A DNA stretch of 64,000 bases from an uncultured Polaribacter sp. (GTDB taxonomy: Bacteria > Bacteroidota > Bacteroidia > Flavobacteriales > Flavobacteriaceae): assembly GCF_947497695.1 (NCBI RefSeq), contig NZ_CANMHM010000012.1, forward strand, positions 2,616 through 66,615. Reading direction: 5' to 3'. A program made the translations under genes and the position numbers. The notes under the pieces are model-generated. The model was not told the DNA's origin and searched no databases. It worked only from the letters and a program-made list of their open reading frames with translations. This document shows, in pieces, positions 15,881 to 33,429 of this stretch; position 1 is the stretch's first letter, and each line of letters begins with the position of its first letter.

Positions 15881-18676
15881 ATGCTTAGAAAATTTCCTTT
15901 CGTATTTCTACTGTTTATTTCTTTTGCAAGTATTGCACAAGAGTTGCCTCCTATTAATTCCTATACAGCTAAAGATTATAAAGCAGAAAATCAAAATTGG
16001 GCGATATCTCAATCAAAAAACAAGTTTATTTATGTAGCTAATAATAAGGGTTTATTAGAGTTTAATGGAGCAAATTGGCAATTGTATTCAACGCCTAATA
16101 AAACCATAATGAGATCTGTAAAAGTATTAAAAGATAAAGTTTATACAGGTTTTTATATGGATTTTGGGTTTTGGAAAAAAAATGAATTCTCAGAATTAGA
16201 ATTTACATCTATTGTTGAAAAACAAAATATTAAAATGTTAGATGATGAGCAAATATGGGAAATCATAGAGCTTGATGGTTGGATGTTATTTAAATCTTTG
16301 CAGAGAATTTATCTTTATAATTTAAAAACAAACGAGGTAAAGATTATTAATTCAGAATTTAAAATTCATAAATTATCAAAAGTAAAAGATGTTATTTATT
16401 TTCAAGAAGCAAATAAAGGAATCTTTAAAATAGAAAATGGTTTCCCTAAGTTAATTTCTGATGATAAAATATTAAAAGAAAATATTATTGTTGAAATTTT
16501 TAAAAAAGAGGATAGGTTATTGTTTCTAACTCAAAAATCTGGTTTTTTTAATTTAGTAGAAAATAAACTTGTAAAATGGAAAATTCCTTCAGATACAATT
16601 TTAAAAAAATTAACGGTTTACAGTGCCAAACAATTAAAAAATAATGATTTTGCATTAGGCACTATTTCAGATGGTTTTATATATTTAAATAGTAATGGAG
16701 AGATAAATTATCAGATTACGCAAAGTTCTGGTCTTAATAATAACACATTACTTTCTGTTTTTGAAGATATTGATAATAATATTTGGTTAGGTTTAGATAA
16801 TGGTATTAATTCAATTAATAATAGCTCTCCGTTTAAAATATATAATCATAAAAACGATTTTATTGGTACAGTTTATGCTTCAATAGTTCATGAAAATAAT
16901 TTGTATTTAGGTACAAATCAAGGTCTTTTTTTTAGAAAAAAAGATTCTAAAGCCCCTTTTAAATTGATAAAAAATACACAAGGTCAGGTTTGGAGTCTAG
17001 CTGTATTTGATGGAGCATTATTTTGTGGACATGATTCTGGTACTTTTATAATAAAGAATAATTTAGCTAATTTAATTTTTAATAAACAAGGTACTTGGAA
17101 ATTTCAAAAAATAGACGAAAATAAAATTATTCAAGGTTGTTATGATGGGCTTTACATTCTACAAAAAAAGAATAATAATTGGGGGTTAAGAAATAAGATA
17201 GCTGGTTTTAATACATCTAGTAAATACTTTGAAAAATATAATTCACACAAATTTTTAGTAAACCATGAATATAAAGGAGTTTTTAAGCTTACGTTAGATA
17301 AAGATTTTAAGAAAGTATTAAGTAAAGAAATTGAAGAATCACTTGATAAAGGCCTACATTCTTGTTTGATCTCTTACCAAGATAAAATTTTATATTCAAG
17401 TAAAGCAGGTGTTTTTTTATATGATAAAAATAAGGATGTCTTTAAAAAAGATATTATTTATAGCCAATTAATCTCTGAAGATGATTTTATCTCTGCTAAA
17501 TTAGCATTTAATAAATCTAACAATGTGCTTTGGTCTTTCTCTAAAGAAAGTATTAAATGTTTAATTCCAGGAAAGTTAACTACGAAACCTATTGTAAAAA
17601 GCTTGCCAATTTCAGCTTTTATGCCAAAAGCTACTTATGGATATGAAAATATTATTCATTTAGAAAATGAGAAATATTTAATAGGTACTTCTAATGGTTA
17701 TATAACTGTAGATTTAAATAAAATAGATAAAGATCTTAAATTTACAATACAAATAAATGAAATTAATAACTTTATTATAGATGGTCCAAAGGTAAAAGTA
17801 AATCTATTATCACAGAATAATTTTTTATTCAAAGAAAATAATTTAGAATTTTATTACAGTGTACCTAATTATAGTAAAATAACAAGCATAAAATACCAAC
17901 ACCTTTTGTTGGGGCAAAGTAAGCAGTGGAGTGTTCCATCAGTAACTAAATCTGTCTTATTTGAAAATATACCTTATGGCGATTACACGTTTAAAGTTAG
18001 AGCTCTTGTTGATGGTAAAATAAGTAGTAAAGAAGCTACTTATAGTTTTACAATTCAAAGGCCTTGGTATCTTTCTAATTTACTAATTACAATCTATGTG
18101 TTATTATTTTTAATATCATTTTATTTAGTTCATGTTGCATCAAAACGATATTATAGAAAGCAAAGAGAAGAATTGTTAGAAAAAGCAAAAAAAGAACTAG
18201 AATTAAGAGAGCTAGAAAGTTCACAACAAATTATCAAACTGAATAATGATAAGTTAAGAAATGACATTGAAAGTAAAAATAGAGAACTGGCTACCTCTAC
18301 AATGAATATTATTAAGAAAAATGATTTTTTAAATACAATAAAAATTGAATTAATCAATGGCAAAGAGAAAAATATTTCTAAAGTTGTTAAGATTATAGAT
18401 AAAAATTTAAACAATACAGATGACTGGAAAATGTTTCAAGAGGCATTTAACAATGCTGATAAGAATTTTCTTAAAAAAGTAAAAGATAAACATTCTGGTT
18501 TAACTCCTAATGATTTAAGACTCTGTGCTTATTTAAGGCTAAATCTATCTTCAAAAGAAATTGCTCCTTTATTAAATATATCTCCTAGAAGTGTAGAGGT
18601 AAAAAGGTATCGATTAAGAAAAAAGATGGATTTACCTCATGATGCTAACTTAACAAATTACATTTTAGAAATATAA
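15881..18676 (+). CDS. Membrane-anchored one-component regulator: periplasmic beta-propeller (Reg_prop) + Y_Y_Y domain, TM helix, coiled coil, LuxR/GerE HTH
   Basis: Signal peptide, propeller repeats ('NIWLGLDNGINSIN') and Y_Y_Y ('FYYSVPNYSKITSIKYQ...YGDYTFKVRA'). Also TM 'LLITIYVLLFLISFYLVHV' and C-terminal 'LTPNDLRLCAYLRLNLSSKEIAPLLNISPRSVEVKRYRLRKKM'. No kinase or receiver motifs. Confidence 0.85.
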   Translation: MLRKFPFVFLLFISFASIAQELPPINSYTAKDYKAENQNWAISQSKNKFIYVANNKGLLEFNGANWQLYSTPNKTIMRSVKVLKDKVYTGFYMDFGFWKKNEFSELEFTSIVEKQNIKMLDDEQIWEIIELDGWMLFKSLQRIYLYNLKTNEVKIINSEFKIHKLSKVKDVIYFQEANKGIFKIENGFPKLISDDKILKENIIVEIFKKEDRLLFLTQKSGFFNLVENKLVKWKIPSDTILKKLTVYSAKQLKNNDFALGTISDGFIYLNSNGEINYQITQSSGLNNNTLLSVFEDIDNNIWLGLDNGINSINNSSPFKIYNHKNDFIGTVYASIVHENNLYLGTNQGLFFRKKDSKAPFKLIKNTQGQVWSLAVFDGALFCGHDSGTFIIKNNLANLIFNKQGTWKFQKIDENKIIQGCYDGLYILQKKNNNWGLRNKIAGFNTSSKYFEKYNSHKFLVNHEYKGVFKLTLDKDFKKVLSKEIEESLDKGLHSCLISYQDKILYSSKAGVFLYDKNKDVFKKDIIYSQLISEDDFISAKLAFNKSNNVLWSFSKESIKCLIPGKLTTKPIVKSLPISAFMPKATYGYENIIHLENEKYLIGTSNGYITVDLNKIDKDLKFTIQINEINNFIIDGPKVKVNLLSQNNFLFKENNLEFYYSVPNYSKITSIKYQHLLLGQSKQWSVPSVTKSVLFENIPYGDYTFKVRALVDGKISSKEATYSFTIQRPWYLSNLLITIYVLLFLISFYLVHVASKRYYRKQREELLEKAKKELELRELESSQQIIKLNNDKLRNDIESKNRELATSTMNIIKKNDFLNTIKIELINGKEKNISKVVKIIDKNLNNTDDWKMFQEAFNNADKNFLKKVKDKHSGLTPNDLRLCAYLRLNLSSKEIAPLLNISPRSVEVKRYRLRKKMDLPHDANLTNYILEI

Positions 18677-18695
18677 CACCCAAACAAGTTTATAT

Positions 18696-18709
18696 TTTAC
18701 CACAACATT
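18696..18709 (+). promoter_or_regulatory. Motif A 'TTTACCACAACATT' upstream of the glucan-utilization operon (second CACAACA half-site at 18712-18718)
   Basis: Identical 14-mer at 38626-38639 upstream of the T9SS CBM gene. Confidence 0.4.
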
Positions 18710-18815
18710 AACACAACAAAGTTAATTTAGTATCTTTTTGTGATAATTTTATACATGTTTGTAAAACCTTGTTTTTAGTAGAAATTTATTCCCATTTCTG
18801 TTTTTTTTAAAAATC

Positions 18816-18838
18816 TGTATGTTTTTTGTTGTGGTTAA
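18816..18838 (+). promoter_or_regulatory. Motif B 'TGTATGTTTTTTGTTGTGGTTAA', containing the reverse complement (TGTTGTGG) of the motif A core
   Basis: The first 16 nt are identical to 38763-38778. Lies 145 nt before the ATG at 18961. Confidence 0.4.
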
Positions 18839-18960
18839 TTTTATTGTTTAACTTTAAATTAAGTATAATTTTATCAAACAAATAATAGATATATATTTCT
18901 GTTAAATTTTCCTTTAAACAATTAACCAACTTTTAAAGTATTAATTAAATCAAATAAATT

Positions 18961-21900
18961 ATGAAGAACATCTTTTTAAGATTAACAGTTCTCTTATTTA
19001 CATTAAATCTTTTTGCACAAACCAGTAAAGTTTCTGTAGTAAAAGATGTACAAGGAATGAGATTACAAGTAGATGGAAAACCATTTATTGTTAATGGTAT
19101 GAACTGGGATTATATTCCTATCGGAACAAATTACAATTATAGTTTGTGGAAACAATCTGATGATGTCATTAAGGCAGCTTTAGATGCAGAAATGGGTTTG
19201 TTAAAAAATATGGGTGTAAATGCAGTTAGACAATATACTGGCATTCAACCTAAATGGGTTACTTATATTTATGAAACCTATGGAATTTATACAATGTTAA
19301 ACCATTCTTTTGGTAGATATGGTCTTACATTAAACGGAGCATGGGTTGCAGTAACAGATTACAGAGATAAGAAAACACAAGAAGTATTATTAGGTGAAGT
19401 AACTAAATTAGCTAAAGAATATAAAAACACACCTGGTTTGCTATTGTTTTTATTAGGTAATGAAAATAATTATGGTCTTTTTTGGGCTGGTGCAGAAACG
19501 GAAGATTTTCCTGATGAAGAAGATAAGAAAAGAGAAGTTGGTGAGAAACGTGGTAGACCTATGTATAAGCTAATGAATGATGCAGCTAAAATTATGAAAG
19601 AAATCAATCCATCAAACCCTATTGCTATTTGTAATGGTGATGTTTTGTTTATTGATATTATAGCAGAAGAATGTAAAGATATTGACATATATGGTACCAA
19701 TATGTATCGTGGAAAATCTTTTGGAGATGCATTTCAAGTAGTAAAAGACAAATTAAATAAACCAATTCTTTTTACTGAGTTTGGTGCAGATGCATTTAAT
19801 GCAATTACAAACCAAGAAGATCAAAAAATGCAAGCATTTTATATGGTAAATAACTGGAAAGATATTTATGAAAATGCTTCTGGAATGGGAAAAGTTGGAA
19901 ATTCTCTAGGAGGTTTTACTTTCCAATTTAGCGATGGATGGTGGAAATTTGGTCAAACTAAAAATCTAGATGTACATGATAATAATGCTTCTTGGGCAAA
20001 TGGAGGGTATTACCTAGATATGGAAAATGGTAATAATAATATGAATGAAGAGTGGTTTGGTATTTGTGCCAAAGGCCCAACAAATTCAAAAGGTCTTTAC
20101 ACCTTATATCCTCGTGCAGCATATTATTCTTTAAAAGAAGTACATTCTTTAAATCCTTTTAAAGATGGAGTTACCTCTGCTACAATAGCAGATCATTTTT
20201 CTAAAGTAAATTTAATGGATGCCGTTTTAAGAGCAAGAGGAGATAAAGCTGCAATGGGAGGAAACGAAAAAATTAGATTGAGTAATTTACGTGCTGAGTT
20301 TACTACTTTTAATACAGGTGGTAGTTTAATTACAACCCCAGAAACTGCAGATCCAACCGCAAATAATTTTCCTAGTCAATTAGGTTTCGATCACATGCAA
20401 TCTTATTACATTGGTGTTGAAGGAAATCCTGCTCCTAATATGAGAGCCAACGTAAATTTTAATATTATTGGTAATGTAGCAGAAAATGCTATTGATGAAA
20501 TTTTTTATGAAAATAGGGGGCGATCTGTAACAGTAAACACAGATGATGGTAATGTTATTTTAAATGATGTAAATCGTTTAAATGTTTACAACGCAGAATT
20601 TGAGTGGTCTGCTAAAGATTTTGATCTAAGAGGTTTTTATAGAACAGGTCATTATCATTGGGGTTATGAAGGTGATTTCTTTGGATTGTATCCAGAAGCA
20701 AACTATGGACCTAATTTAGATATTTATGGAGGTGAAATTTTAGGTGTTGAGATTGATGGAAAAGGAGCTTTTAATGGTTTAAAAGGAGCATTTGGACCTC
20801 AACTTTGGTGGGGGGCAAACCCAACCACACTTTTAAAATATAGTAAAAAAGTAGGGCATTATGGTATTACAGGTGTTTACCATAGAGATGTAGAAACAGA
20901 TATTAATATAGATCCATTAACTGGTCGTCGTATTTTAGATGCAAATCAAGTTCGAAGTGGTATTATTCCTGCATTTCCTACAGAGAGGTTTGCAATAGCA
21001 GTAGAGAGAGAGTTGGGTAATTTTGGAATTACATTAGGAGGTATTTGGGCAGGAAGTCCTTTAAACGGGTCTTCTTATCAAGATGTAGCAACCAATTCCA
21101 TAGGAGAACAGGTTGTTTATGTAGATAAAGTTAAAAGCTCAGACAATTGGGGTGGAAAAGCTAAAATCACCTATCAAAAAGGTGTTTTTAATTGGTATGC
21201 TCAAGGTGCAATTATGGGCTTAGTTGCCAATGGTGGTGCAGATCAAACACAAACTTTTACAGGATGGAAATTAAAAGATAACGGAAGTGGAAATCAGACT
21301 AATTTTTTAACAGGAGCAACTTTTTCTACAGGTAATTTACAAATTGCTCCTAATTTCTTATATCAAAAGCCTTTAGTAGCTGCAATGCCTAATGGAATAA
21401 ACGCGCCAGGTAGATTAAGAAACGTAATAGACGATCCTTTTGCTGTAAGAGGTAATAGAGAAACAACAGCAATGGAATGGCTATTTACCTATGATCCAAC
21501 ACCAGGTACTTGGATGTATGAATGGGATAATGATAGGGCAGAAGATGCTAAATTAGCAATGAATTTAGGTTTTGTATTTAGACATCTACCAACAACACAA
21601 GATGCACATATTGGTTTTTTAGCAAATCGTAACTTTTTTGCATTTCCTAATGCTGCTCCTGCAGAAGATTTATGGGAAGTAAGTTCTAGAATTGTTTCAA
21701 AAATTAATCCAGATTTTGGTTTTATTGCGAACTTATTTTATGGGAACGGACAAGCTAATGGTGATAATGTAAGATTGATAAAAAGAGGTGGAGGAGATAT
21801 TAGAATGATTTACAATAAGCTAAAAGTTACAGCAACAGCTAAGTTTAACGATTGGGGACCTTTTGATTATCATAGAGATTTTAACTTAACCTACCCAACA

Positions 21901-22131
21901 CAATTAATGTTAGATTTTTCTACAACATTAGGTAAACCAGGTTGGTTTATATTACCAAATACTAAAATGGGAATTAGAGGAACATGGCGTTCTTTAGATG
22001 AATTTTCACCACGTTATAGTCCTAATGTAGCCGCAGAATTTGCAACATCACCAACTATTAGTCCTGTTGGATTTGGTAATGGAAGTGAATGGGAAATTAG
22101 AACATACATACATATCAACATTGGAAAATAA
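18961..22131 (+). CDS. Exported fusion protein: clan GH-A TIM-barrel glycosidase-like N-domain + roughly 600-aa putative outer-membrane beta-barrel
   Basis: SPI signal ('LNLFAQ|TS'). 'LLGNENNY' (acid/base NE), 'ILFTEFGADAF' (nucleophile E), 'FQFSDGWWKF'. C-terminal part is Gly/Asn/aromatic-rich with amphipathic strands ('KAKITYQKGVFNWYAQGAIMGL', 'GGDIRMIYNKLKVTATAKF', 'SEWEIRTYIHINIGK'). Confidence 0.55.
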   Translation: MKNIFLRLTVLLFTLNLFAQTSKVSVVKDVQGMRLQVDGKPFIVNGMNWDYIPIGTNYNYSLWKQSDDVIKAALDAEMGLLKNMGVNAVRQYTGIQPKWVTYIYETYGIYTMLNHSFGRYGLTLNGAWVAVTDYRDKKTQEVLLGEVTKLAKEYKNTPGLLLFLLGNENNYGLFWAGAETEDFPDEEDKKREVGEKRGRPMYKLMNDAAKIMKEINPSNPIAICNGDVLFIDIIAEECKDIDIYGTNMYRGKSFGDAFQVVKDKLNKPILFTEFGADAFNAITNQEDQKMQAFYMVNNWKDIYENASGMGKVGNSLGGFTFQFSDGWWKFGQTKNLDVHDNNASWANGGYYLDMENGNNNMNEEWFGICAKGPTNSKGLYTLYPRAAYYSLKEVHSLNPFKDGVTSATIADHFSKVNLMDAVLRARGDKAAMGGNEKIRLSNLRAEFTTFNTGGSLITTPETADPTANNFPSQLGFDHMQSYYIGVEGNPAPNMRANVNFNIIGNVAENAIDEIFYENRGRSVTVNTDDGNVILNDVNRLNVYNAEFEWSAKDFDLRGFYRTGHYHWGYEGDFFGLYPEANYGPNLDIYGGEILGVEIDGKGAFNGLKGAFGPQLWWGANPTTLLKYSKKVGHYGITGVYHRDVETDINIDPLTGRRILDANQVRSGIIPAFPTERFAIAVERELGNFGITLGGIWAGSPLNGSSYQDVATNSIGEQVVYVDKVKSSDNWGGKAKITYQKGVFNWYAQGAIMGLVANGGADQTQTFTGWKLKDNGSGNQTNFLTGATFSTGNLQIAPNFLYQKPLVAAMPNGINAPGRLRNVIDDPFAVRGNRETTAMEWLFTYDPTPGTWMYEWDNDRAEDAKLAMNLGFVFRHLPTTQDAHIGFLANRNFFAFPNAAPAEDLWEVSSRIVSKINPDFGFIANLFYGNGQANGDNVRLIKRGGGDIRMIYNKLKVTATAKFNDWGPFDYHRDFNLTYPTQLMLDFSTTLGKPGWFILPNTKMGIRGTWRSLDEFSPRYSPNVAAEFATSPTISPVGFGNGSEWEIRTYIHINIGK

Positions 22132-22144
22132 AAAAGATAAAGAA

Positions 22145-23557
22145 ATGAAAATTATACAATTTATAGATTCGAAAATCATATTTGTTTTAGGATTGTTTTT
22201 GATAACATTTACAAGTTGTGAAAGACATCTTTCAGACGAAGCTGAATTTGCTACACATGCAACTACTGCCGAAATTTTTATTGACGGTTTTGAAGGTGGT
22301 TTAGATTACTTTCCTTTTGGAGGTTCTTTTTTAGAAGCATTTTCAGTAGATACAGATGAAAGTTATACAGGAGAAGCTTCAATGCGTTTCGATATTCCTT
22401 CTTTTGGAGTTGGTTTTGGAGGAGCAACTTTTCCAAGCACAGCACCAAGAGATTTATCAGGATATGATGCCTTAACCTTTTGGGCGAAAGCTTCTAAAGG
22501 AGCAGATATTAATGAAATTGGTTTCGGAATTGATGGAAACGGAAGTAAATACCAAGTTACAGCAAGTAATCTTGCAATATCAACAAAATGGACAAAGTAT
22601 ATTGTACCTATACCAGACCCTAAAAAGTTAATTGAGCATATAGGTATGTTTTGGTATGCAGAAGGTGCAGAAAATGAGAATGATGAAGGAGGTTATAGTT
22701 TTTGGATTGATGATTTGCAATTTGAAAAATTAGGAACTATTGCACAACCACGTCCTGCTATTTTAAATGGAGAAGAAATTACAGAACAAGCTTTTAATGG
22801 AGGTACAGTAAATTTGGCTGATCGTGGTCTTACTCAAACATTTAATTTAGGTTCTGGTGCCAATCAAACAGTTTCTGTTGCTCCCTCATATTTTACATTT
22901 AACTCTACAGATGTTGATGTAGCAAGAGTAAGTGAGTTAGGAGTTGTATCTATAGTTGGTAATGGAACAGCAACAATAACAGCAACATTAAACGGTGTAA
23001 AAGCTCTTGGATCATTAACAATAGAAACTATTGGAAGTTTTGATTTTGCTCCAACTCCTACATTAGCTTCAAGTAGCGTGATATCAATTTTTAGTGATGC
23101 CTATACTAATATTCCTGTTGACTTTTTTAATGGTTTTTGGGAGCCTTTCCAAACTACATTATCTGCAGATTTTACTTTAAATAATAATAACATATTAGGT
23201 TATACTAATTTTAATTTTGTTGGACATCAGTTTTCAAGTCCAACTGTAGATGCTACTGAAAAATCTACTTTACATATAAATATGTACATACCAGCAGAAA
23301 TACCAGCAGATTTAGATTTTTTAATTACTATAAAAGATTTTGGTCCCGACAAAGCAGATGGTGGAGGAGATGATACAACACAACAAGTGTTTTTCTATGC
23401 AGAAGATTTTGAAGCTTACACTTGGGCAACTTTAGAAATACCAATAACAATGGTAAATAAAAATAATATTGGTCAAATTATTTATGAGAATATTAATAAC
23501 CCAACAACATCATCTATAGAGAGTTTTTATTTAGATAATATCTATTTCCATAATTAA
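22145..23557 (+). CDS. Surface glycan-binding lipoprotein candidate (CBM-like + Big_2 + 'SDAYTN' domain)
   Basis: ATG at 22145 gives lipobox 'ITFTSC|ERH'. The listed start at 22040 overlaps the upstream gene. 'YSFWIDDLQFEKLG' ends a CBM-like sandwich and 'VARVSELGVVSIVGNGTATITATLNG' is Big_2. C-terminal domain starts 'VISIFSDAYTN'. Confidence 0.65.
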   Translation: MKIIQFIDSKIIFVLGLFLITFTSCERHLSDEAEFATHATTAEIFIDGFEGGLDYFPFGGSFLEAFSVDTDESYTGEASMRFDIPSFGVGFGGATFPSTAPRDLSGYDALTFWAKASKGADINEIGFGIDGNGSKYQVTASNLAISTKWTKYIVPIPDPKKLIEHIGMFWYAEGAENENDEGGYSFWIDDLQFEKLGTIAQPRPAILNGEEITEQAFNGGTVNLADRGLTQTFNLGSGANQTVSVAPSYFTFNSTDVDVARVSELGVVSIVGNGTATITATLNGVKALGSLTIETIGSFDFAPTPTLASSSVISIFSDAYTNIPVDFFNGFWEPFQTTLSADFTLNNNNILGYTNFNFVGHQFSSPTVDATEKSTLHINMYIPAEIPADLDFLITIKDFGPDKADGGGDDTTQQVFFYAEDFEAYTWATLEIPITMVNKNNIGQIIYENINNPTTSSIESFYLDNIYFHN

Positions 23558-23568
23558 AAATAAATAAT

Positions 23569-24396
23569 ATGAATAAAATATATAAAATAAAAGTATCACT
23601 ATTTAAATCATTACTTATTGTATTCACTCTGTTTTTTGCAACAAGTTGTAATACAGATGAAGAGCAGACAGTTGCAACGTTTACTAATTTAGTAATGCAA
23701 GACGAGTTTGATACCAATGGATCTTTAGATAATACCATTTGGGATTTTAACATTGGTACAGGTACTAATGGTTGGGGTAATAATGAACTTCAATATTATA
23801 CAGACCGTTCAGAAAATGCGATTGTACAAAATGGTGTATTAATTATAACGGCAAAAAAAGAAGATTTTAATGGTGCTGGTTATACATCAGCAAGAATACT
23901 AACAAAAGGCAAATTTGAACAGAAGTATGGGCGTTTTGAAGCACGTATTAGATTGCCTTATGGTCAAGGAACTTGGCCTGCATTTTGGTTATTAGGTGCT
24001 AATATTGATGAAGTGGGTTGGCCACAATGTGGAGAAATTGATATCATGGAAAATCGTGGACAAGAACCTACCTTAATTAGTGGAACAGTTCATGGTCCTG
24101 GTTATTCTGCTGGAGAATCTATAGGGAAATCGTATGAATTATTAAACGATAGATTTGATACTGGGTTTCATGTTTTTGGAATTGAATGGGGACCTGAATA
24201 CATCAATTTTTATGTAGATGATGTATTGTATAATCAAATAACACCAGAAGATGTTACAGGAGAATGGGTTTACGATCATCCGTTTTTTATCATTTTAAAT
24301 TTAGCTATTGGAGGTGATTATGTAGGGGCGCCAAATGCCGAAACTGTTTTTCCTCAAAGGATGCTTGTAGATTACGTTAGAGTTTATCAAAAATAA
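23569..24396 (+). CDS. GH16 endo-beta-1,3-glucanase (laminarinase), lipoprotein
   Basis: Lipobox 'FFATSC|NTDEEQ'. Has the GH16 catalytic motif 'GEIDIMEN' (ExDxxE), 'WPAFWLLG' and 'NLAIGG'. Confidence 0.9.
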   Translation: MNKIYKIKVSLFKSLLIVFTLFFATSCNTDEEQTVATFTNLVMQDEFDTNGSLDNTIWDFNIGTGTNGWGNNELQYYTDRSENAIVQNGVLIITAKKEDFNGAGYTSARILTKGKFEQKYGRFEARIRLPYGQGTWPAFWLLGANIDEVGWPQCGEIDIMENRGQEPTLISGTVHGPGYSAGESIGKSYELLNDRFDTGFHVFGIEWGPEYINFYVDDVLYNQITPEDVTGEWVYDHPFFIILNLAIGGDYVGAPNAETVFPQRMLVDYVRVYQK

Positions 24397-24418
24397 ATAA
24401 AATTTAAAAATAAATATT

Positions 24419-26863
24419 ATGAAACAAATCATTCAAAAAATAAAGCAAATTTCAATATTGCTTTTAGTTTTATCTTTTTTAAGCTGTGAAAAAGAAGATG
24501 AGAAAAATTTACCTCAAATAACAGCTGGTTTTACCTATACAATTAATGTAGATACAGGTACTGTAACTTTTATAAATATTTCTGAAAGTGCTGATAGTTA
24601 TGAGTGGTCTTTTGGAGACGAGACAGAAAACTCACCAGCAACAACATCCACAGAAGTTAATCCAATACATACATTTGCAAGTGGTACTTATACAGTATTG
24701 TTAAAAGCGAAAAATGTTGCGGGAGCTTCTAATACTTTTGAGAGCATTATTACTTTCGAAATTCCAGAAGTATTTGCTTTTCCAGTAACGTTTGATAATG
24801 CAAAAGTGAGTTACACTGTAGCTACTTTTAGTGGTACTACTTTTAAGATAGTAGATAATCCTGCATTAGGAGGTACAAATAATGTTGCCTCTAAAGTAGG
24901 TGAAATTGTAAATAGTGGAGCAGCTTTTGAAGGGATAGCTTTAGAATTAGGAACAGATTTAGATTTAACAACAAACAAATCAATAAAAGTTAATGTTTGG
25001 TCAGATAAAGCTGTTGATGTTTTATTAAAATTAGAAATATCAGAAAGTGATGCCGTTGAAACAGCAGTAAATCACACTGGTTCTGGATGGGAAGAATTAA
25101 CATTTAGTTTTAGTTCATCAAAATCATATCCTAAAGTTGTTGTTTTTATTGATGGACCTGGAGCTACTACAGGAACCTTTTATATTGATGATTTAGTTCA
25201 AGTTGCATCAGAAGAATCTCCTGCTCCTTTATGTGAAGCAGAAACAATGCAGTCTTTAAATGCGGTAGATTTTAATTTAACTTTTATGGCAGATCCAGCG
25301 TCTAGCTTAACAATTATACAAGACAATACAACCTATGAATATATAGATAATATTGCAGCTACAGATGCTAATAACTCATGTAAAATAGGTAAGCTAACCA
25401 ATAGCAACCAAAACCCTTGGGACAATTTACAAATAGATTTAGCAAGTAAATTAACTTTTACAAATGGATCAAACTTTACAATGAAGGTGTATTCGCCTCA
25501 GTCTGGGTACAAAGTAACTATGAAGCTTGAAGATAAAAATGATAATAGTATTAAGACAGAAGTAGCTTCTTCAGCGACAACAAAAACAAACGAATGGGAA
25601 GTAATTACAGTTCCTTTTGGAGCTACTGATAGTGGAAAGTATGATAAAATTGTACTGTTTTTTGATTTAGAAACACAAAACGGAAACACGTATTATTTTG
25701 ATGATTTAAAATTAAACGCTGGTTCTGGTGGTGGAAATACTGGTGGAGGAGCTTGTACTACAGATGCTGCTCAATCTCTTAGTGCATCAAGTTTTGATTT
25801 AACTTTTTTAACAGATATTGGTACTATAGCAACAAAAGGTGCAGATGTTGGTAAGTTTTTTCAAGACAACACAACGTATGAATATGTTGATAATCCAGGA
25901 ACTTCTTCAGTAAATAATTCATGTAAAGTAGGTAAGGCTACAAACAGCAATCAAAACCCTTGGGATAATTTACAAATTGATTTAACAAACAAATTAGCAT
26001 TTACTGATGGATCAAATTTTACAATGAAAGTATACTCGCCACAATCTGGTTATAAAGTAACTTTAAAGTTAGAAGATAAAACAAACGGAGGAATTGCAAA
26101 AGAATTTCCTTCTAATGAAACAACTACTAAAATTAATGAATGGGAAGTACTAACTTTTCCTGTAAGTGCAGCTGATGCTAATATATATGATAAAATTGTA
26201 TTGTTTTTTGATTTACAAACTCAAAATGCAAACACGTATTATTTTGATGATTTAAAGTTGAACTTAGGTTCTGGTGGTGGAAATACAGGTGGTAATTCAG
26301 GTGGAAGTGGAACCTCAAGTACTCTTGGAGGGGGAACTGGATGTGATGATACAATTACATGCCCTGCTGCTCCAGTAGGTGAATTATTATTTAACGGAGA
26401 TTTTGAAGCATGTGACTGTGATTGGCAATTAATTAACAATGGAGGTTTAGTAACCATCTCAACAACAATTAGTAATGGGGGTACAAAATCTGCTCAAATT
26501 CAATCTGCAGCGGGTGTAAACCCAGCATTAAAGCAAGAAAGACTTGGTGCAGGTCTTATTCAACCAAATACTACTTATGTTGTTACTTTTGATATTAAAG
26601 CATCAGGTGAATTTGGTGAGGGTGGTTTGTTCAAGGCATTTACTTTTTCTGAAGGAGAAAATGGTGGAGACGTAGCTGCAACTCAACATGTTCTAACAGA
26701 GAATACTACTAGTATTTCATCTGCTTCTTGGGAAAGTAAATCGTATACTTTTACTACTCCAGGATCTGCAGCTCAAGTTGCAGGAGGAATATCTTTCTTA
26801 GCTGAGTTAGTAAACAGTGCCGCTTCAGTAAACATAGATAATGTAGTTATAAAAGCTCAATAA
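24419..26863 (+). CDS. PKD-domain + four CBM-like modules surface lipoprotein
   Basis: Lipobox 'LSFLSC|EKEDEK'. PKD ('TVTFINISESADSYEWSFGDE...YTVLLKAKN'). Modules end 'FYIDDLVQV', 'YYFDDLKLN' (twice) and 'IDNVVIKAQ'. Gly-rich linkers 'GSGGGNTGG'. Confidence 0.7.
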   Translation: MKQIIQKIKQISILLLVLSFLSCEKEDEKNLPQITAGFTYTINVDTGTVTFINISESADSYEWSFGDETENSPATTSTEVNPIHTFASGTYTVLLKAKNVAGASNTFESIITFEIPEVFAFPVTFDNAKVSYTVATFSGTTFKIVDNPALGGTNNVASKVGEIVNSGAAFEGIALELGTDLDLTTNKSIKVNVWSDKAVDVLLKLEISESDAVETAVNHTGSGWEELTFSFSSSKSYPKVVVFIDGPGATTGTFYIDDLVQVASEESPAPLCEAETMQSLNAVDFNLTFMADPASSLTIIQDNTTYEYIDNIAATDANNSCKIGKLTNSNQNPWDNLQIDLASKLTFTNGSNFTMKVYSPQSGYKVTMKLEDKNDNSIKTEVASSATTKTNEWEVITVPFGATDSGKYDKIVLFFDLETQNGNTYYFDDLKLNAGSGGGNTGGGACTTDAAQSLSASSFDLTFLTDIGTIATKGADVGKFFQDNTTYEYVDNPGTSSVNNSCKVGKATNSNQNPWDNLQIDLTNKLAFTDGSNFTMKVYSPQSGYKVTLKLEDKTNGGIAKEFPSNETTTKINEWEVLTFPVSAADANIYDKIVLFFDLQTQNANTYYFDDLKLNLGSGGGNTGGNSGGSGTSSTLGGGTGCDDTITCPAAPVGELLFNGDFEACDCDWQLINNGGLVTISTTISNGGTKSAQIQSAAGVNPALKQERLGAGLIQPNTTYVVTFDIKASGEFGEGGLFKAFTFSEGENGGDVAATQHVLTENTTSISSASWESKSYTFTTPGSAAQVAGGISFLAELVNSAASVNIDNVVIKAQ
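25232..26290 (+). repeat. Diverged tandem duplication of a roughly 522-bp CBM-like module (25232-25753 and 25754 to about 26290)
   Basis: Both copies start at a Cys codon and share 'QDNTTYEY(I/V)DN', 'NSNQNPWDNLQIDL', 'GSNFTMKVYSPQSGYKVT', 'YDKIVLFFDL' and 'TYYFDDLKLN', followed by 'GSGGGNTGG'. Confidence 0.9.
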
Positions 26864-26888
26864 TTAGTTTTTTACTATTATTAATAAA

Positions 26889-26922
26889 CAGCTTGAGTAA
26901 TCATTAATTCATACTCAAGCTG
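26889..26922 (+). terminator. Hairpin splitting the glucan locus into two transcription units
   Basis: 11-bp perfect stem: cagcttgagta (26889-26899) pairs with tactcaagctg (26912-26922), followed by 'cttattat'. Confidence 0.55.
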
Positions 26923-27176: not shown

Positions 27177-30100
27177 ATGACAAAGAATACTATTTTTTTA
27201 GGAGAAAATAAAGCAAACTTTCAAGCCCAAGAGGTAAAAGGAGAAATGATAAACTTTGAGAACGAAGTTTATTACAAGATTTCTAATAGCAATGAAATGA
27301 GACCTTTTTTTATGAGTATTGTCTCAGACTCTAACCACTGGATGTTTATTTCAAGTAATGGAGGTCTTACAGCTGGTAGAAAAAATAGCGAACATTCTCT
27401 TTTTCCATATTATACAGATGATAAAATTACAGAATCTGCAGATATTACAGGAAGTAAATCTATTTTTAGGGTAACTAAAAACGGTAAAACGTATTTATGG
27501 GAACCATTTACCCAAAGGCAAATCGGTTTGTATCAAACAACACAAAACGTATATAAAAATAGCTATGGTAACAAAGTTGTTTTTGAAGAGGTTAATGAAA
27601 CTTTAGGACTTACTTTTAGATATCAATGGAGCTCTTCTGATCAATTTGGATTTGTAAAAAAATCTACGTTAGTAAACAATACATCAGAAAAAATAGACAT
27701 CATATTTATAGATGGTTTGCAAAATATTATTCCTTCGGATGTTGAAACAGATTTACAAAACTCAAGAAGTAATTTAGTTGATGCTTACAAAAAAAGTGAA
27801 TTACAAAAAGAAAGTGGTTTAGGTATTTTTGCTTTAAGTGCTATTATTGTTGATAAAGCAGAGCCAAGTGAAGCTTTAAAAGCAAATATAGTTTGGTCTT
27901 ATGGTATTCAAAACCCAACCTATTTGTTATCATCTTTACAATTAGATAATTTTAGAAAAGGCAAAGAAATTTATCAAGAAGAAGATGTTAAAGCAGAAAA
28001 AGGTGCTTATTTTATTAGTACTGCAATTGTTTTAGAAGCCAATGAAACCAAAGAATGGAGCTTTGTAGCCAATGTAAATCAAACAATTGGTGATATTCAA
28101 AAAATAGCATCAGCAATAAAAAAAGATGAAAATTTAACAGAAATTATTGATAAAGATATTGACCTTGGTACTAAAAATTTAATCGCTTTAACAACTGCAG
28201 CTGATGGTTTACAACTAACCAACGACCCATTAATTAATACAAGACATTTTGCAAATACACTTTTTAATTTAATGCGAGGTGGTACTTTTGATGATGATTA
28301 TAAAATTGAAAAAGAAGATTTTAAAAAATATATAGGTAAAGCAAATAAAGAGGTTTTTAAAAGTAAAGAAGCAACTTTAAATAACTTACCAGATGTATTT
28401 ACTCTGGATGTAATTTTGGATATTGCAGAGAAAGATGCAAATAAAAATTTTAAAAGACTTTGTTTTGAGTACTTACCTTTAAAATTTAGTAGAAGACATG
28501 GAGATCCAAGTAGACCATGGAACAAGTTTTCTATAAATACTAAAAGTGAAATTGATGGTTCTAAAATTTTAGATTACGAAGGAAATTGGCGAGATATTTT
28601 CCAGAACTGGGAAACCTTAGCTCATTCGTATCCAGAATTTATTGAGAGTATGATTCATAAATTCTTAAACGCCACTACTTTTGATGGTTACAATCCTTAT
28701 AGAGTTACAAAAGATGGTTTTGATTGGGAAGTTATAGAAGAAAATGATCCTTGGTCTTATATTGGTTATTGGGGAGATCATCAGATTATTTACTTATTAA
28801 AATTCTTAGAATTTATAGAGAATCACTATCCAACTCAATTAGAAAAACGTTTTACAGAAGACATTTTTGTCTATGCAAATGTGCCTTATGTAATTAAAAG
28901 TTATCAAGAAATTTTAACAAATTCTAAAGATACTATTGATTTTAATTACAAATTACAAGAAAAAATAGAACTAAAAAGAGAAAACTTAGGAGCTGATGGA
29001 GCTTTAATAAGAGACGCAAAAAATACAATTTATCAGGTAAATTTATTAGAAAAATTATTAGCAACAGTTTTAGCAAAAGTATCTAATTTTATTCCTGAAG
29101 GAGGAATTTGGATGAATACCCAAAGACCAGAATGGAATGATGCCAACAATGCTTTAGTTGGTAATGGAGTTTCTATGGTAACTTTAAATTATTTAAATCG
29201 TTTTATAAATTTCTTTGAAAAAATAGTTGCCAAATCATCAACAGAAAAAGTAAATATTTCTGGTGAATTGGCTCTCTTTTTTAATTCTGTTGTAGTAACA
29301 TTAAATCAGCATAAAAACATACTTTCAGGCAAAGTTTCTGATACAGACAGAAAAACGATTTTAGATGGTTTAGGAGAAGCTGCAAGTTTGTACAGAACTA
29401 CTATTTATAAAATTGGTTTTTCAAGTGATAAAACTCAGGTTACAAAAACCGAATTATTAGCATTTTTTACCATCACAAAACAATATTTAGAACATACGAT
29501 TAAAGCAAATAAACGTTCTGATAATTTATATCATTCCTATAATTTAATGACCATAGAAAATGATACACAAGTATCTATTTCTTATCTGTCTGAAATGTTA
29601 GAAGGCCAAGTTGCTGTTTTAAGTGCTGGTTATTTATCATCAAAAGAAGCATTAGAGGTTTTAGATGGTATGAAAGCGAGTGCGTTGTTTAGAAAAGATC
29701 AATACAGTTATATTTTATACCCAAATAAAAACTTACCACGTTTTGATGAGAAAAACGTAATTCCGACTGTTTCTATAGAAAAATCTGAATTGTTATTAAG
29801 ATTAATGAATGATGAAAACACGCAAATAATTAATAAAGATATTACAGGTAAATTTCATTTTAATGCAAACTTTAATAATGCGAATAGTTTAAAAGAAACA
29901 TTCGAAAAATTACCAGAAAATTATACTGATTTGGTTGTAAAAGAATCAGATTTAGTACTCTCTATTTTCGAGGAAGTATTTAACCATAAAGCATTTACAG
30001 GTCGTTCAGGAACTTTCTTTGGTTATGAAGGTTTAGGGTCTATTTATTGGCACATGGTTTCTAAATTATTATTAGCAGTTCAAGAAAATTGCTTATTGGC

Positions 30101-30635
30101 TGTAAAAAATAATGAAAGTGAAGCTCTTATCGGGCAATTATTAGATCATTATTATGAAATTCAGGCTGGTATTGGAGTGCATAAATCGCCTAAATTATAT
30201 GGTGCTTTTCCTACAGATCCTTATTCTCATACACCAGCAGGCAAAAGAGCACAACAACCAGGAATGACAGGTCAGGTTAAAGAAGATGTGTTGAGTAGAA
30301 TTGGTGAATTAGGTGTTTTTGTAAAAAACGGACAAATTATCTTTAACCCAAGATTGCTTAGAGCAAGTGAGTTTGTTACATCAACAAAAAACTTTAAATA
30401 CACCAATATAAACAAAGAAGATACATCAATTGTAATAGAAAAAGATTCGCTTTGTTTTACTTATTGTCAGGTTCCAATTATTTATACCAATGCTAAAGAA
30501 GAAGGCATAAAAGTGTTTTTTACAGATGATAAAGTAGAAGAGTTTTCAAACTTGAGTCTTGATAATAAGGTTTCTAAAATGATGTTTAAAAGAACAGGAG
30601 ATATAGATAGAATTGAAGTTTCAGTAATAAAATAA
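27177..30635 (+). CDS. Cytoplasmic GH94-clan (GH149/GH161-like) beta-1,3-glucan phosphorylase candidate
   Basis: 1152 aa, no signal peptide. 'GNWRDIFQNWE' resembles the GH94 'RDxxQD' phosphate/sugar motif and 'RPEWNDANNALVG' the 'DWND' catalytic-Asp motif (recalled). Sits in the operon with GH17, GH30 and a sugar symporter. Confidence 0.5.
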   Translation: MTKNTIFLGENKANFQAQEVKGEMINFENEVYYKISNSNEMRPFFMSIVSDSNHWMFISSNGGLTAGRKNSEHSLFPYYTDDKITESADITGSKSIFRVTKNGKTYLWEPFTQRQIGLYQTTQNVYKNSYGNKVVFEEVNETLGLTFRYQWSSSDQFGFVKKSTLVNNTSEKIDIIFIDGLQNIIPSDVETDLQNSRSNLVDAYKKSELQKESGLGIFALSAIIVDKAEPSEALKANIVWSYGIQNPTYLLSSLQLDNFRKGKEIYQEEDVKAEKGAYFISTAIVLEANETKEWSFVANVNQTIGDIQKIASAIKKDENLTEIIDKDIDLGTKNLIALTTAADGLQLTNDPLINTRHFANTLFNLMRGGTFDDDYKIEKEDFKKYIGKANKEVFKSKEATLNNLPDVFTLDVILDIAEKDANKNFKRLCFEYLPLKFSRRHGDPSRPWNKFSINTKSEIDGSKILDYEGNWRDIFQNWETLAHSYPEFIESMIHKFLNATTFDGYNPYRVTKDGFDWEVIEENDPWSYIGYWGDHQIIYLLKFLEFIENHYPTQLEKRFTEDIFVYANVPYVIKSYQEILTNSKDTIDFNYKLQEKIELKRENLGADGALIRDAKNTIYQVNLLEKLLATVLAKVSNFIPEGGIWMNTQRPEWNDANNALVGNGVSMVTLNYLNRFINFFEKIVAKSSTEKVNISGELALFFNSVVVTLNQHKNILSGKVSDTDRKTILDGLGEAASLYRTTIYKIGFSSDKTQVTKTELLAFFTITKQYLEHTIKANKRSDNLYHSYNLMTIENDTQVSISYLSEMLEGQVAVLSAGYLSSKEALEVLDGMKASALFRKDQYSYILYPNKNLPRFDEKNVIPTVSIEKSELLLRLMNDENTQIINKDITGKFHFNANFNNANSLKETFEKLPENYTDLVVKESDLVLSIFEEVFNHKAFTGRSGTFFGYEGLGSIYWHMVSKLLLAVQENCLLAVKNNESEALIGQLLDHYYEIQAGIGVHKSPKLYGAFPTDPYSHTPAGKRAQQPGMTGQVKEDVLSRIGELGVFVKNGQIIFNPRLLRASEFVTSTKNFKYTNINKEDTSIVIEKDSLCFTYCQVPIIYTNAKEEGIKVFFTDDKVEEFSNLSLDNKVSKMMFKRTGDIDRIEVSVIK

Positions 30636-30658
30636 GTTTAGATAAAGGAATCCCAAAT

Positions 30659-31927
30659 ATGAAATTAATTTTTAAAATAGTCATTCTTAGTATTGTTTTG
30701 ATTTTTGGGTGTACTTCTAAAGAGAAGAAAATAGTACAGCAAAAAAGTATAATGAATGCAGCATATATTTTAGGAAATTCTGAATACTTGGCAATATCTT
30801 ATGGAGGCTACAGAGCTACTTCAAGAGATATTCAACCAACGATTACAGAGTTAAAAGAAGATCTTAAAATATTATCTGCAATGGGCATTAAAATTTTAAG
30901 AACCTACAATGTGCAGCCAAAATTGCCTCATGCAGCAAATGTTTTAGAAGCCATTCATCAACTTAAAAAAGAAGATGCTAATTTTGATATGTATGTAATG
31001 TTAGGTGCTTGGATAGATTGTTTGAATGCTTGGACAAATAAAGCTCCAAACCATAATATTGAAAGTGCACAAAATGAAGGAGAAATAGCAAGAGCAGTTG
31101 CTTTGGCTAACAAATACCCAGAAATTGTAAAAGTAATTGCTGTGGGTAATGAAGCCATGGTAAAATGGGCAGAAAACTATTACGTACAACCAAATGTTAT
31201 TTTAAAATGGGTAAACCACTTACAAAATTTAAAGAAAAACGGAGCTCTTGCTAAAGACATTTGGATTACAAGTTCAGACGATTTTTCTTCTTGGGGTGGA
31301 GGAGATGAATTGTATCATACAAAAGATTTAGAAAGTTTAATAAAAGCAGTAGATTATATATCTATGCATACTTATCCTTATCATAATTCACACTACAATC
31401 CTGAGTTTTGGAAAACACCAAATCATTTAAATAATCTTTCTGATAAAGAAAAAATAGATGCATCAATGTTAAGAGCATTCAATTTTGCTAAAAACCAATA
31501 CAATGGTGTTAAAAATTATATGAAAAGTTTAGGGGTTGATAAACCAATTCATATAGGAGAAACAGGTTGGGCAACCATTTCTAACGGACATTATGGGGCA
31601 AATGGATCAAGAGCTACAGATGAATATAAACAGGGTTTGTATTACAACTACATAAGAAATTGGACAAATAAGCAAGGAATTTCTTGTTTCTATTTTGAAG
31701 CTTTTGATGAACAATGGAAAGATGCAAACAACCCAAATGGCTCAGAAAATCATTTTGGATTGATAAATCTAAAAGGAGAAGCAAAATATCCGCTTTGGAG
31801 TTTGGTTGATGATGGAGTTTTTAAGGGTTTAACAAGAAACGGAAAACAAATTACTAAAACATACAATGGAGATTTAGAAACTTTAATGAAAGATGTTTTT
31901 GTACCTAATACAGACTATAAAAGATAA
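30659..31927 (+). CDS. GH17 beta-1,3-glucanase/transglycosylase, lipoprotein
   Basis: Lipobox 'LIFGC|TSKEKK'. 'VIAVGNEAMV' (acid/base) and 'IHIGETGWAT' (nucleophile) match GH17. Confidence 0.8.
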   Translation: MKLIFKIVILSIVLIFGCTSKEKKIVQQKSIMNAAYILGNSEYLAISYGGYRATSRDIQPTITELKEDLKILSAMGIKILRTYNVQPKLPHAANVLEAIHQLKKEDANFDMYVMLGAWIDCLNAWTNKAPNHNIESAQNEGEIARAVALANKYPEIVKVIAVGNEAMVKWAENYYVQPNVILKWVNHLQNLKKNGALAKDIWITSSDDFSSWGGGDELYHTKDLESLIKAVDYISMHTYPYHNSHYNPEFWKTPNHLNNLSDKEKIDASMLRAFNFAKNQYNGVKNYMKSLGVDKPIHIGETGWATISNGHYGANGSRATDEYKQGLYYNYIRNWTNKQGISCFYFEAFDEQWKDANNPNGSENHFGLINLKGEAKYPLWSLVDDGVFKGLTRNGKQITKTYNGDLETLMKDVFVPNTDYKR

Positions 31928-31938
31928 AATTCATCAGA

Positions 31939-33429
31939 ATGAAAACAAAATATTTTTTTTACGCACTATTTTTATTGATGATGATAAGTTGTAATCAAAA
32001 AAATAAAAAATTATCTGTTGATGTTTATGAAACCTCAGAAGCTGGAAATAAGCTAACTAAAATATCTGAATTTAAAGCAGCTGAAAATCCATCAACAATA
32101 ACCATAAATACTAATACAACATATCAAACTATAACTGGTTTTGGGGGTGCTTTTACAGAAGCTTCTGCTTATTTACTAAATCGATTGAGTAAAAAAAATA
32201 GAGATACTATTTTACAAGCTTATTTTGCAGAAGAAGGAGCAAATTATTCACTTACAAGAACCCACATGAATTCTTGTGATTTTTCATTAAGTAACTATTC
32301 GTATTCTCCTGTTCTAGAAGATGTTAATTTAGAGCATTTTACAATAAAAGAAGATATGAATGATTTAATTCCGATGATAAAAGATGCGATGAAAGTATCC
32401 AAAGACGGATTTAAAATATTTGCATCTCCTTGGACAGCAGCTCCTTGGATGAAAGATAATAACAAGTGGGTTGGAGGAAAATTATTACCAAAATATTATG
32501 ATACTTGGGCTTTATTCTTTTCTAAATATTTAAATGCTTATAAATCACAAGGAATAAATATATGGGGTTTTACAGTAGAAAATGAACCTCATGGGAATGG
32601 AAATAATTGGGAAAGTATGCATTTTACCCCAGATGAAATGACGGAATTTGTACAACACCATTTAGGTCCAAAATTAGAAAAAGATGGTTATGGAGATAAA
32701 ATTATTTTAGGATATGACCAAAATAGAGAAGGAGTTAAAGAATGGGTAGACTCTATGTATGCAACTCCAGAATCTTCTAAATATTTTGATGGAACAGCCA
32801 TTCATTGGTACGAAAGTACGTATAAGGTTTTTTCTAAAGAATTACAATATGCACACTACAAAGCACCAGATAAGTATTTAATCGAAACAGAAGGTTGTGT
32901 AGATTCTCAAGTTCCTGTTTGGCAAGATGATGCTTGGTATTGGAAAAAAGAATCTACAGATTGGGGTTGGGACTGGGCTCCAGAAGAAGACAAATATTTA
33001 CACCCAAAGTATGCTCCTGTTAACAGGTATGCAAGAGACATTATTGGTTGCCTAAATAATTGGGTAGATGGTTGGGTAGATTGGAACATGGTTTTAGACA
33101 AACAAGGAGGCCCAAATTGGTTTAAAAATTGGTGTATTGCTCCTGTAATTGTAGATCCAGAAAAAGATGAAGTTTATTTTACACCCTTGTATTATACAAT
33201 GGCTCATTTTAGTAAATACATTAGACCCAAGGCTAAAGTTATTGGCATAGAAAATACAGATAAAGAGTTACAAGTAACTGCAGCTCAAAACCCAAATGGT
33301 TCTATTGCAGTGGTGGTTTTTAATGAAGGAAAAACTAAAAAGAGTTTCAAATTACTTTTAGGAGAAAAGGAAACACTTGTAAATATAGATGCACAAGCAT
33401 TACAAACTATAATGATATCATCAAAATAA
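31939..33429 (+). CDS. GH30 beta-1,6-glucanase/glucosylceramidase-like, lipoprotein
   Basis: Lipobox 'MMISC|NQKNKK'. 'ITGFGGAFTEASAY', 'GFTVENEPH' (acid/base) and 'YLIETEGC' (nucleophile) are typical of GH30. Confidence 0.85.
   Translation: MKTKYFFYALFLLMMISCNQKNKKLSVDVYETSEAGNKLTKISEFKAAENPSTITINTNTTYQTITGFGGAFTEASAYLLNRLSKKNRDTILQAYFAEEGANYSLTRTHMNSCDFSLSNYSYSPVLEDVNLEHFTIKEDMNDLIPMIKDAMKVSKDGFKIFASPWTAAPWMKDNNKWVGGKLLPKYYDTWALFFSKYLNAYKSQGINIWGFTVENEPHGNGNNWESMHFTPDEMTEFVQHHLGPKLEKDGYGDKIILGYDQNREGVKEWVDSMYATPESSKYFDGTAIHWYESTYKVFSKELQYAHYKAPDKYLIETEGCVDSQVPVWQDDAWYWKKESTDWGWDWAPEEDKYLHPKYAPVNRYARDIIGCLNNWVDGWVDWNMVLDKQGGPNWFKNWCIAPVIVDPEKDEVYFTPLYYTMAHFSKYIRPKAKVIGIENTDKELQVTAAQNPNGSIAVVVFNEGKTKKSFKLLLGEKETLVNIDAQALQTIMISSK

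Follow-up and report, generated by a model that had tools for sequence, protein, structure and literature searches.

In a 64,000-nt stretch of DNA from an uncultured Polaribacter sp. (the window; contig NZ_CANMHM010000012.1, positions 2,616 to 66,615; G+C content 29%), a single gene (18961..22131) encodes a secreted protein of 1056 residues that, judging from structure models, very probably joins a clan GH-A glucanase domain resembling family GH158 to a large outer-membrane β-barrel. All features of the window given below lie on its + strand, and all positions are those of the window unless stated otherwise. A reading of the window made from the letters alone (the sequence-only reading) had described this open reading frame (ORF) with a type-I signal peptide and a set of short motifs, all of which we found as described, and had called the N-terminal half a clan GH-A enzyme and the C-terminal half a large outer-membrane barrel; both calls were borne out by AlphaFold2 (AF2) models and by the profile and structure comparisons described below.

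The ORF starts with ATG and is not a chance ORF, because its product has more than 5295 homologues at E ≤ 1e-3. The nearest relatives, at 77–80% identity, come from Polaribacter and related Flavobacteriaceae, and the closest ones are named ‘glycosidase’ or ‘glycoside hydrolase family 2 TIM barrel-domain containing protein’ in the database. As read from the sequence, the predicted signal peptide covers residues 1–19 (18961..19017): the N-terminus, MKNIFLRLTVLLFTLNLFA followed by QTSK, has the type-I pattern with cleavage after LFA and no lipobox Cys. The helix at residues 4–17 has a low predicted local distance difference test score (pLDDT) in the full-length AF2 model, and the TIM barrel begins immediately after the signal peptide.

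The barrel and the glucanase-like domain

The C-terminal domain (residues ~438–1055; 20272..22125) was predicted to be an outer-membrane β-barrel of ~26 strands. Modeled alone with an alignment of 106 sequences, it folded into 26 long antiparallel strands (pLDDT 89.2; predicted template modeling score, pTM, 0.88). When this domain was searched against the PDB with Foldseek, all of the 50 best matches were outer-membrane barrels, with TM-scores of 0.21–0.37. They included BtuB, FepA, PfeA and other TonB-dependent transporters, the Campylobacter MOMP, AlgE, the FimD usher, OccK, OmpF/OmpU, maltoporin (LamB) and LptD; in another Foldseek search, ChiP (7VTZ) gave a generic barrel match only. The fold class of the modeled domain is clear, and it has no close structural relative. 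We set the membrane side of the strand ends from the C-terminal strand, taken to end in the periplasm. In the AF2 model, the periplasmic-side connections are then 5, 3, 6, 2, 2, 5, 2, 2, 21, 2, 2 and 12 residues long (mostly 2–6), and the outer-side loops 19, 36, 33, 7, 31, 8, 6, 26, 31, 25, 9, 11 and 28 residues (median 25). This modeled asymmetry of short turns and long loops is typical of outer-membrane proteins (OMPs). Furthermore, the C-termini of distant relatives (...YFTYSF, ...YFQYFF and ...YTSISY) carry the classic OMP β-signal. The terminal residue of the window protein is not aromatic, and its terminal Lys had been a worry of the sequence-only reading. This worry is largely answered: the flavobacterial clade has the equivalent last strand, RTYIHINI, and the two extra residues that follow it, Gly-Lys, account for the terminal Lys.

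It is very improbable that the C-terminal half consists of stacked soluble β-sandwich or CBM-like domains (CBM, carbohydrate-binding module) of an ordinary secreted multidomain glycosidase, the arrangement that the sequence-only reading had set against its own barrel call; a β-rich half high in Gly, Asn and aromatic residues is CBM-like and the database names give a glycosidase only, but AF2 shows a single large barrel domain and no beads on a string, not one of the top 50 Foldseek matches is a β-sandwich, no CBM or Ig model of Pfam matched the 51 family members searched at E ≤ 1, and the relatives end in an OMP β-signal.

No Pfam model matched residues 440–1056 even at E ≤ 10, and models for barrels, porins, DUF5916, Plug, autotransporters, CBMs or Ig domains found nothing in the 51 members at E ≤ 1. 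The CBM9-DUF5916 architecture, which had been offered as a distant precedent, gained no support from these searches, and the Alginate_exp and porin leads were dropped for the same lack of a Pfam match. CarboxypepD_reg, TonB_dep_Rec and Plug were likewise unmatched in the fusion protein and the 51 relatives at E ≤ 1, in line with the earlier remark that no plug motif is visible; the genuine SusC proteins of related loci do match these models. Scanned with HMMER for the C-terminal domain, 1.84 billion representative proteins yielded 503 clusters at E ≤ 1e-3, among them fused proteins of 1000–1100 aa and stand-alone proteins of 560–620 aa. The named carriers are all diderm (Bacteroidota, Gammaproteobacteria, Desulfuromonadaceae, Cloacimonadota and Rhodothermales). 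The barrel is a large domain family with neither a Pfam model nor a close structural relative. Its most conserved positions, HYHWGYEGDFFGLYPE, LWWGANP, DDPFAVRGNRE and DPTPGTWMYEWDNDRAEDA, lie in the long loops and not in the membrane strands, the conserved loops being those at residues 561–593, 615–621, 804–834 and 845–865; such a peak of conservation is expected for a specificity filter and favors a channel over a mere anchor.

The N-terminal domain (residues ~24–431; 19030..20253) forms a (β/α)8 barrel in the full-length AF2 model and contains the motifs LLGNENNY, ILFTEFGADAF and FQFSDGWWKF. The first motif holds E168, the predicted acid/base in a GNE motif after β4 (19462..19464), and the second holds E273, the predicted nucleophile in a TEFG motif after β7 (19777..19779). 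The sole Pfam match of the protein was a partial one to Glyco_hydro_2_C (residues 73–283, profile positions 37–219 of 302, E 3e-7, 30 bits). Pfam found no GH2_N or GH2 Ig domain in the fusion protein, and the NCBIfam LacZ model gave a fragment match of 28 bits against a cut-off of 1284; These three points, and the start of the TIM barrel directly behind the signal peptide, speak against GH2 membership. A PDB search with the single sequence returned noise only (a serpin at E 0.18), and a profile built from close homologues was of no use either. A diverse profile built from the 51 family members matched BuGH158 (6PAL; E 1.9e-9), GH158(Pro) (9ORO; E 2e-8) and GH2 β-galactosidases (E 1e-4); the GH158 alignment spans only ~190 residues (core ~129–319) and has no single-sequence counterpart. 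In this alignment, N167-E168 and E273 fall on chain positions 114–115 and 198 of 6PAL, which a construct offset of 22 residues turns into N136, E137 and E220 of BuGH158, and mutation of any of these three abolishes activity (PMC7157763). E168 and E273 thereby align with E137 and E220, respectively. In the Foldseek search, the crystal structures of GH158(Pro) (9P26/9ORO) were the best matches of the domain (E 6e-13), followed by GH2 glucuronidases and the GH72 enzyme Gas2.

The profiles and the models predict that the N-terminal domain is an enzyme of clan GH-A and place it closest to GH158, the family of endo-β-1,3-glucanases; by its architecture it does not belong to GH2. Among the enzyme families considered in the sequence-only reading, the nearest is GH158 and neither GH2 nor GH5. 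The fusion protein shares with BuGH158 (6PAL) and GH158(Pro) (9ORO/9P26) the clan GH-A (β/α)8 fold, the NE after β4, the TE after β7 and the occurrence in β-1,3-glucan utilization loci, in addition to being matched best by them in profile and structure. However, the similarity is at the profile level only, with ~13% identity in the structural alignment, and BuGH158, a lipoprotein of ~400 aa, ends in an Ig-like domain where the fusion protein has its ~620-residue barrel. The catalytic Glu pair is retained in 31 of 33 fused family representatives. Longer versions were also seen: two uncultured Flavobacteriaceae (L043, 10001–14281; L050, 10001–14282) have an apparent extra copy of the GH-A domain in front, at 24–25% identity, P0258 (1218 aa) has a CBM_4_9 module ahead of the GH-A domain and the barrel, and P0126 (1351 aa) has an N-terminal extension of ~350 residues.

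The whole protein resembles known outer-membrane transport systems in part and differs from them as follows: First, as in SusC/SusD pairs, a gene for a large outer-membrane barrel directly precedes that for a glycan-binding lipoprotein, and TonB-dependent transporters are top structural matches. In contrast to SusC, the fusion protein has an enzyme at its N-terminus, lacks the Plug, the carboxypeptidase-regulatory-like domain and the TonB box, and has ~26 strands instead of 22; in contrast to SusD, its partner is a β-sandwich CBM/Ig lipoprotein, and real SusC/D genes can stand alongside it (see below). Membership among SusC or TonB-dependent transporters failed on the missing Plug (PF07715), the missing TonB box and the strand number. 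Second, the LamB maltoporin and the ChiP chitoporin are also plug-less and TonB-independent, and their genes adjoin those of the matching glycanase and importer, comparable to the stand-alone form of the barrel in Gammaproteobacteria. Unlike the fusion protein, they have 16–18 strands and no enzyme; the TM-scores are 0.2–0.3 and no sequence relation is detectable. Membership in the LamB/ChiP/OprD-like porins failed for lack of a Pfam match and at a Foldseek TMq of 0.21 to LamB (1MAL). The barrel half probably functions like these sugar porins without being one of them. Third, the MFS-GH17 ‘transporter-CAZyme fusion’ of Formosa (MFS, major facilitator superfamily; CAZyme, carbohydrate-active enzyme) is a different, inner-membrane case.

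The laminarin locus in the window and in other genomes

The cluster around the fusion gene (15881–34924), in which all genes are on one strand, is a laminarin-utilization locus. It opens with a Y_Y_Y/LuxR membrane regulator of the BguR type (15881..18676; Pfam Y_Y_Y, GerE and Reg_prop), a type that in Formosa agariphila controls the laminarin locus (bioRxiv 10.64898/2026.01.10.698779). A second regulator gene of this type (41447–44248) stands at the far end of the cluster and is 63% identical to the first, so that the locus is bracketed by two paralogous regulators. As the sequence-only reading had it, the fusion gene is the first gene after the regulator and a CBM-bearing lipoprotein gene starts 13 nt past its stop codon, at 22145. 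This partner lipoprotein (470 aa; 22145..23557) has CBM-like and Ig-like domains (lipobox LITFTSC; weak CBM_11 and Big_2 matches). It is followed by a GH16 lipoprotein of the endo-laminarinase type (23569..24396; Glyco_hydro_16, E 2e-26; lipobox FATSC), a PKD-domain lipoprotein of 814 aa that is probably a surface glycan-binding protein (24419..26863; PKD_4; lipobox LSFLSC), a GH149 β-1,3-glucan phosphorylase (27177..30635; NCBIfam GH149_beta_1_3, 1800 bits) that is cytoplasmic because it has no signal peptide, a GH17 lipoprotein (30659..31927; Glyco_hydro_17; lipobox IFGC), a GH30 lipoprotein of the β-1,6-glucosidase type (31939..33429; Glyco_hydro_30, E 3e-78) and a GPH/MFS inner-membrane sugar symporter (33500..34924; MFS_2, E 1e-63; TIGR00792). 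A tblastn search of the whole window found no homologue of SusC or SusD.

A lipoprotein export signal is known in Bacteroidota, and we used it to read the residues after the lipobox Cys. These residues are acidic in the GH16 protein (NTDEE) and the PKD protein (EKEDE) and basic in the GH17 (TSKEKK) and GH30 (NQKNKK) proteins, which suggests that the former two are on the surface and the latter two periplasmic. This split agrees with the order of laminarin processing proposed below. Downstream of the symporter gene lie genes for a 1098-aa FG-GAP/ASPIC-UnbV lipoprotein (35231–38527) and a 772-aa protein with a C-terminal sorting domain of the type IX secretion system (T9SS) and a weak SGBP_B_XBD match (38900–41218). 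A 395-aa ORF without a Pfam match (14428–15615) lies just 5’ of the first regulator.

To place the locus among its relatives, we ran a pattern scan over a set with one genome for each species; at least 597 genomes contained a relative, and the best 80 loci were analyzed. The loci retrieved with the alignment of close homologues were picked by similarity and are all from Bacteroidota; the tblastn probes were the window proteins plus SusC and SusD from one related locus. Among 84 loci, 77 show the order fusion gene, CBM lipoprotein, GH16, with contig ends behind most of the exceptions, and 81 encode a homologue of the CBM lipoprotein directly 3’ of the fusion gene. For SusC/D, we restricted the count to the 63 loci with at least 7 kb upstream, and 47 of these have none within 10 kb; since the loci were picked by similarity within Bacteroidota, such fractions are indicative and not an unbiased census. 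The regulator gene stands directly 5’ of the fusion gene, as in the window, in 38 of the 47 (in 33 it is on the same strand and clearly homologous to BguR; in 5 it is on the opposite strand and matches at 25–27% identity). The SusC/D-less layout is more frequent than the other and is found again in several genera, Flavivirga among them. In one locus of Polaribacter filamentus (L002, 1–1694), the regulator upstream of SusC is seemingly split into pieces of 478+, 220 and 124 aa, which may reflect a pseudogene or an assembly error.

Outside the Bacteroidota, Marinobacterium and one uncultured gammaproteobacterium carry the barrel as a stand-alone protein of ~580 aa with its own signal peptide. 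Its gene is flanked by an SBP_bac_5 oligosaccharide ABC (ATP-binding cassette) importer with a LacI regulator gene, which precede it (L004, 3159–9809; L005, 3031–9723), and by a GH16 gene; beside the barrel, the GH16 gene and the importer, no outer-membrane transporter gene was called there. ‘Type I’ GH149 clusters, which have the SBP_bac_5/LacI set, were noted to be without an outer-membrane transporter and an extracellular laminarinase (PMC5827456). In L004 and L005, the barrel and the GH16 protein would fill both of these missing roles, as far as their sequences tell. Two other non-flavobacterial lineages have the fused form beside GH16, GH30, MFS and GH149-sized genes. A lipoprotein of ~207 aa is encoded next after the fused gene in L086 (11003–11629) and L087 (11120–11743); the two copies (lipoboxes LLASC and LIAGC) are 35% identical to each other (E 4e-36), have no relation to the CBM lipoprotein of the flavobacteria, and may serve the barrel as a plug or a lid. 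The family, fused or stand-alone, is tied to β-1,3-glucan catabolic loci in several phyla.

A proposed channel with a tethered glucanase and its alternatives

On balance, the models and the gene context incline us slightly toward a full mechanism in which the barrel is a TonB-independent β-1,3-glucan channel with a tethered glucanase. This proposal builds on the observed domain architecture, barrel fold class, conservation of catalytic residues, gene triad and frequent absence of SusC/D; from these we infer a channel function, its substrate, the membrane side of the enzyme and a complex with the lipoprotein. At the cell surface, the CBM lipoprotein and the GH16 lipoprotein would capture laminarin and nick it. 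The fragments would then pass through the barrel by diffusion, with the conserved aromatic and acidic loops serving as a specificity filter, and this passage would be TonB-independent because the barrel has no plug domain. The glucanase domain would hang on the first strand of the barrel. Since the modeled strands are even in number, strand 1 would begin on the periplasmic face, and in the simplest topology the glucanase is thus periplasmic and sits where the channel ends. In this position it would cut the incoming chain and act as a sink that keeps the gradient steep and prevents back-diffusion. The products would be trimmed by GH17 and GH30, imported by the MFS symporter and phosphorolysed by GH149 in the cytoplasm. 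The idea of a TonB-independent enzyme-channel fits all the context data. In particular, a channel is favored over an anchor by the stand-alone barrel in loci with no other visible outer-membrane transporter gene, and by the lack of an alternative transporter in most of the Bacteroidota loci.

Several observations weigh against this proposal. First, the full-length AF2 model has a pLDDT of 85.9 and a pTM of only 0.60, which makes the placement of the domains relative to each other uncertain. Second, the barrel strands are only moderately amphipathic, by a score that is itself moderately informative. Third, SusC/D are present in 16 of the 63 loci, upstream of the fusion gene in 15 and downstream in 1. 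In the 15 loci, SusC, SusD and one or two extra genes lie between the regulator (where in view) and the fusion gene; the sequence-only reading had placed the fusion gene where SusC would sit, and these loci, which hold both, speak for a separate conserved component and no one-for-one substitute for SusC/D. Moreover, in genomes with a SusC/D-less locus, SusC/D genes elsewhere could do the uptake. Fourth, both catalytic Glu residues are gone in two fused lineages, P0148 and P0168, where GNENNYG has become GSSHNWG and TEFG has become FSLG or FTLG and the barrel is retained. These appear from their motifs to be pseudo-enzyme versions of the fusion, implying that catalysis is not essential to its role. 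At last, a plug-less barrel of 26 strands would be leaky unless filled by loops or by a partner.

Alternatively, the barrel might work like an autotransporter, as an anchor or self-translocator by which the glucanase is exposed on the surface, with the helix at residues 418–431 running through the lumen and uptake left to SusC/D in the locus or elsewhere. We regard this as rather unlikely. The topology, with an N-terminal enzyme, a helix, a short turn and a first strand entered from the periplasmic side, does resemble that of type Va autotransporters, which have an N-terminal functional domain, a helix and a C-terminal barrel. The helix is invariant in the flavobacterial clade, SusC/D accompany the fusion in the 16 loci just described, and a cell-surface location is predicted for BuGH158 (PMC7157763). 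However, autotransporter barrels have 12 strands and ~280 residues, and the barrel here is more than twice as large (~26 strands, ~620 residues); membership in the classical autotransporters failed on this strand number and for lack of an Autotransporter Pfam match. The passenger-free barrel exists in Gammaproteobacteria, and the helix is not conserved among distant fused relatives. Besides, enzymes of Bacteroidota usually reach the cell surface as lipoproteins or by way of the T9SS, and the GH16 enzyme here is already a lipoprotein.

A scaffold that conducts nothing is an improbable alternative. In this case, the barrel would bring the CBM lipoprotein and GH16 together in a complex on the surface, or hold the lipoprotein in its lumen as LptD holds LptE, and other proteins would transport. 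A downstream lipoprotein gene is present throughout, for the 470-aa CBM protein in Flavobacteriaceae and for the ~207-aa one in other lineages; the lumen of 26 strands is large enough for a partner, and LptD is among the structural matches of the C-terminal domain. Against it stand the gammaproteobacterial loci with the stand-alone barrel, in which no other outer-membrane transporter gene was called, and the 47 of 63 Bacteroidota loci without SusC/D nearby.

Hardly credible is a polysaccharide exporter of the PgaA/BcsC/AlgE kind, with the glycosidase processing exported β-glucan: PgaA and BcsC do have a periplasmic N-terminal domain followed by a polysaccharide-conducting C-terminal barrel, the order of the fusion protein, and AlgE is among the structural matches, but those proteins export polymer and carry TPR (tetratricopeptide repeat) domains instead of an enzyme, the locus has no glycosyltransferase or synthase gene, and its context is purely catabolic (GH16, GH17, GH30, GH149, an MFS importer and a regulator of a type that induces laminarin use).

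Implications for laminarin uptake

In the literature, the fusion gene is treated as a plain glycosidase and labeled inconsistently as GH0, GH2 or GH158. A bloom study of 2023 lists a gene of such loci as ‘GH0’, which was among the top 10% expressed in an Aurantivirga metagenome-assembled genome (MAG) (PMC10108472); by elimination, this GH0 is the fusion gene, because the CAZyme set of the Polaribacter MAG matches the locus in the window. A 2026 study of Muricauda loci called the gene a ‘GH2 beta-glycosidase’ (PMC13188888), and the GH158 label has been used for the marine gene (bioRxiv 10.64898/2026.01.10.698779). A 2026 paper on the GH158 mechanism does not discuss the fusion gene. We found no mention of the barrel in the full-text papers searched, a set that is not exhaustive, so that an earlier description elsewhere is possible, and none of DUF5916 in the literature searched. 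As modeled, the fusion protein would be a substrate-specific outer-membrane channel that belongs to a barrel family not yet described and carries its cognate glycosidase as a fused domain.

Laminarin is among the largest carbon fluxes in the ocean, and its uptake is modeled, and measured in metaproteomes, via SusC/D-type transporters. In the commonest type of flavobacterial laminarin locus, the fusion gene is conserved as the first structural gene. If its C-terminal half works as a channel, loci set aside as ‘CAZyme clusters without a transporter’ would in fact have all they need for uptake, the number of laminarin consumers would be underestimated by proxies based on SusC/D, and the enzyme-porin fusion would be a new, energy-free design for passing polymers across the outer membrane. 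A wider proposal, which we offer only tentatively and think somewhat doubtful, is that marine Bacteroidota, along with other diderms, possess a second system for importing glycans across the outer membrane, made up of the fusion protein and its partner lipoprotein and independent of SusC/D and TonB. It would be a giant porin, passive and substrate-specific, that owes its direction to the glucanase at its periplasmic mouth and that would account for a large share of oceanic laminarin uptake in SusC/D-less loci. The fusion protein may thus represent an overlooked route of sugar uptake in laminarin loci that are very common in the ocean.

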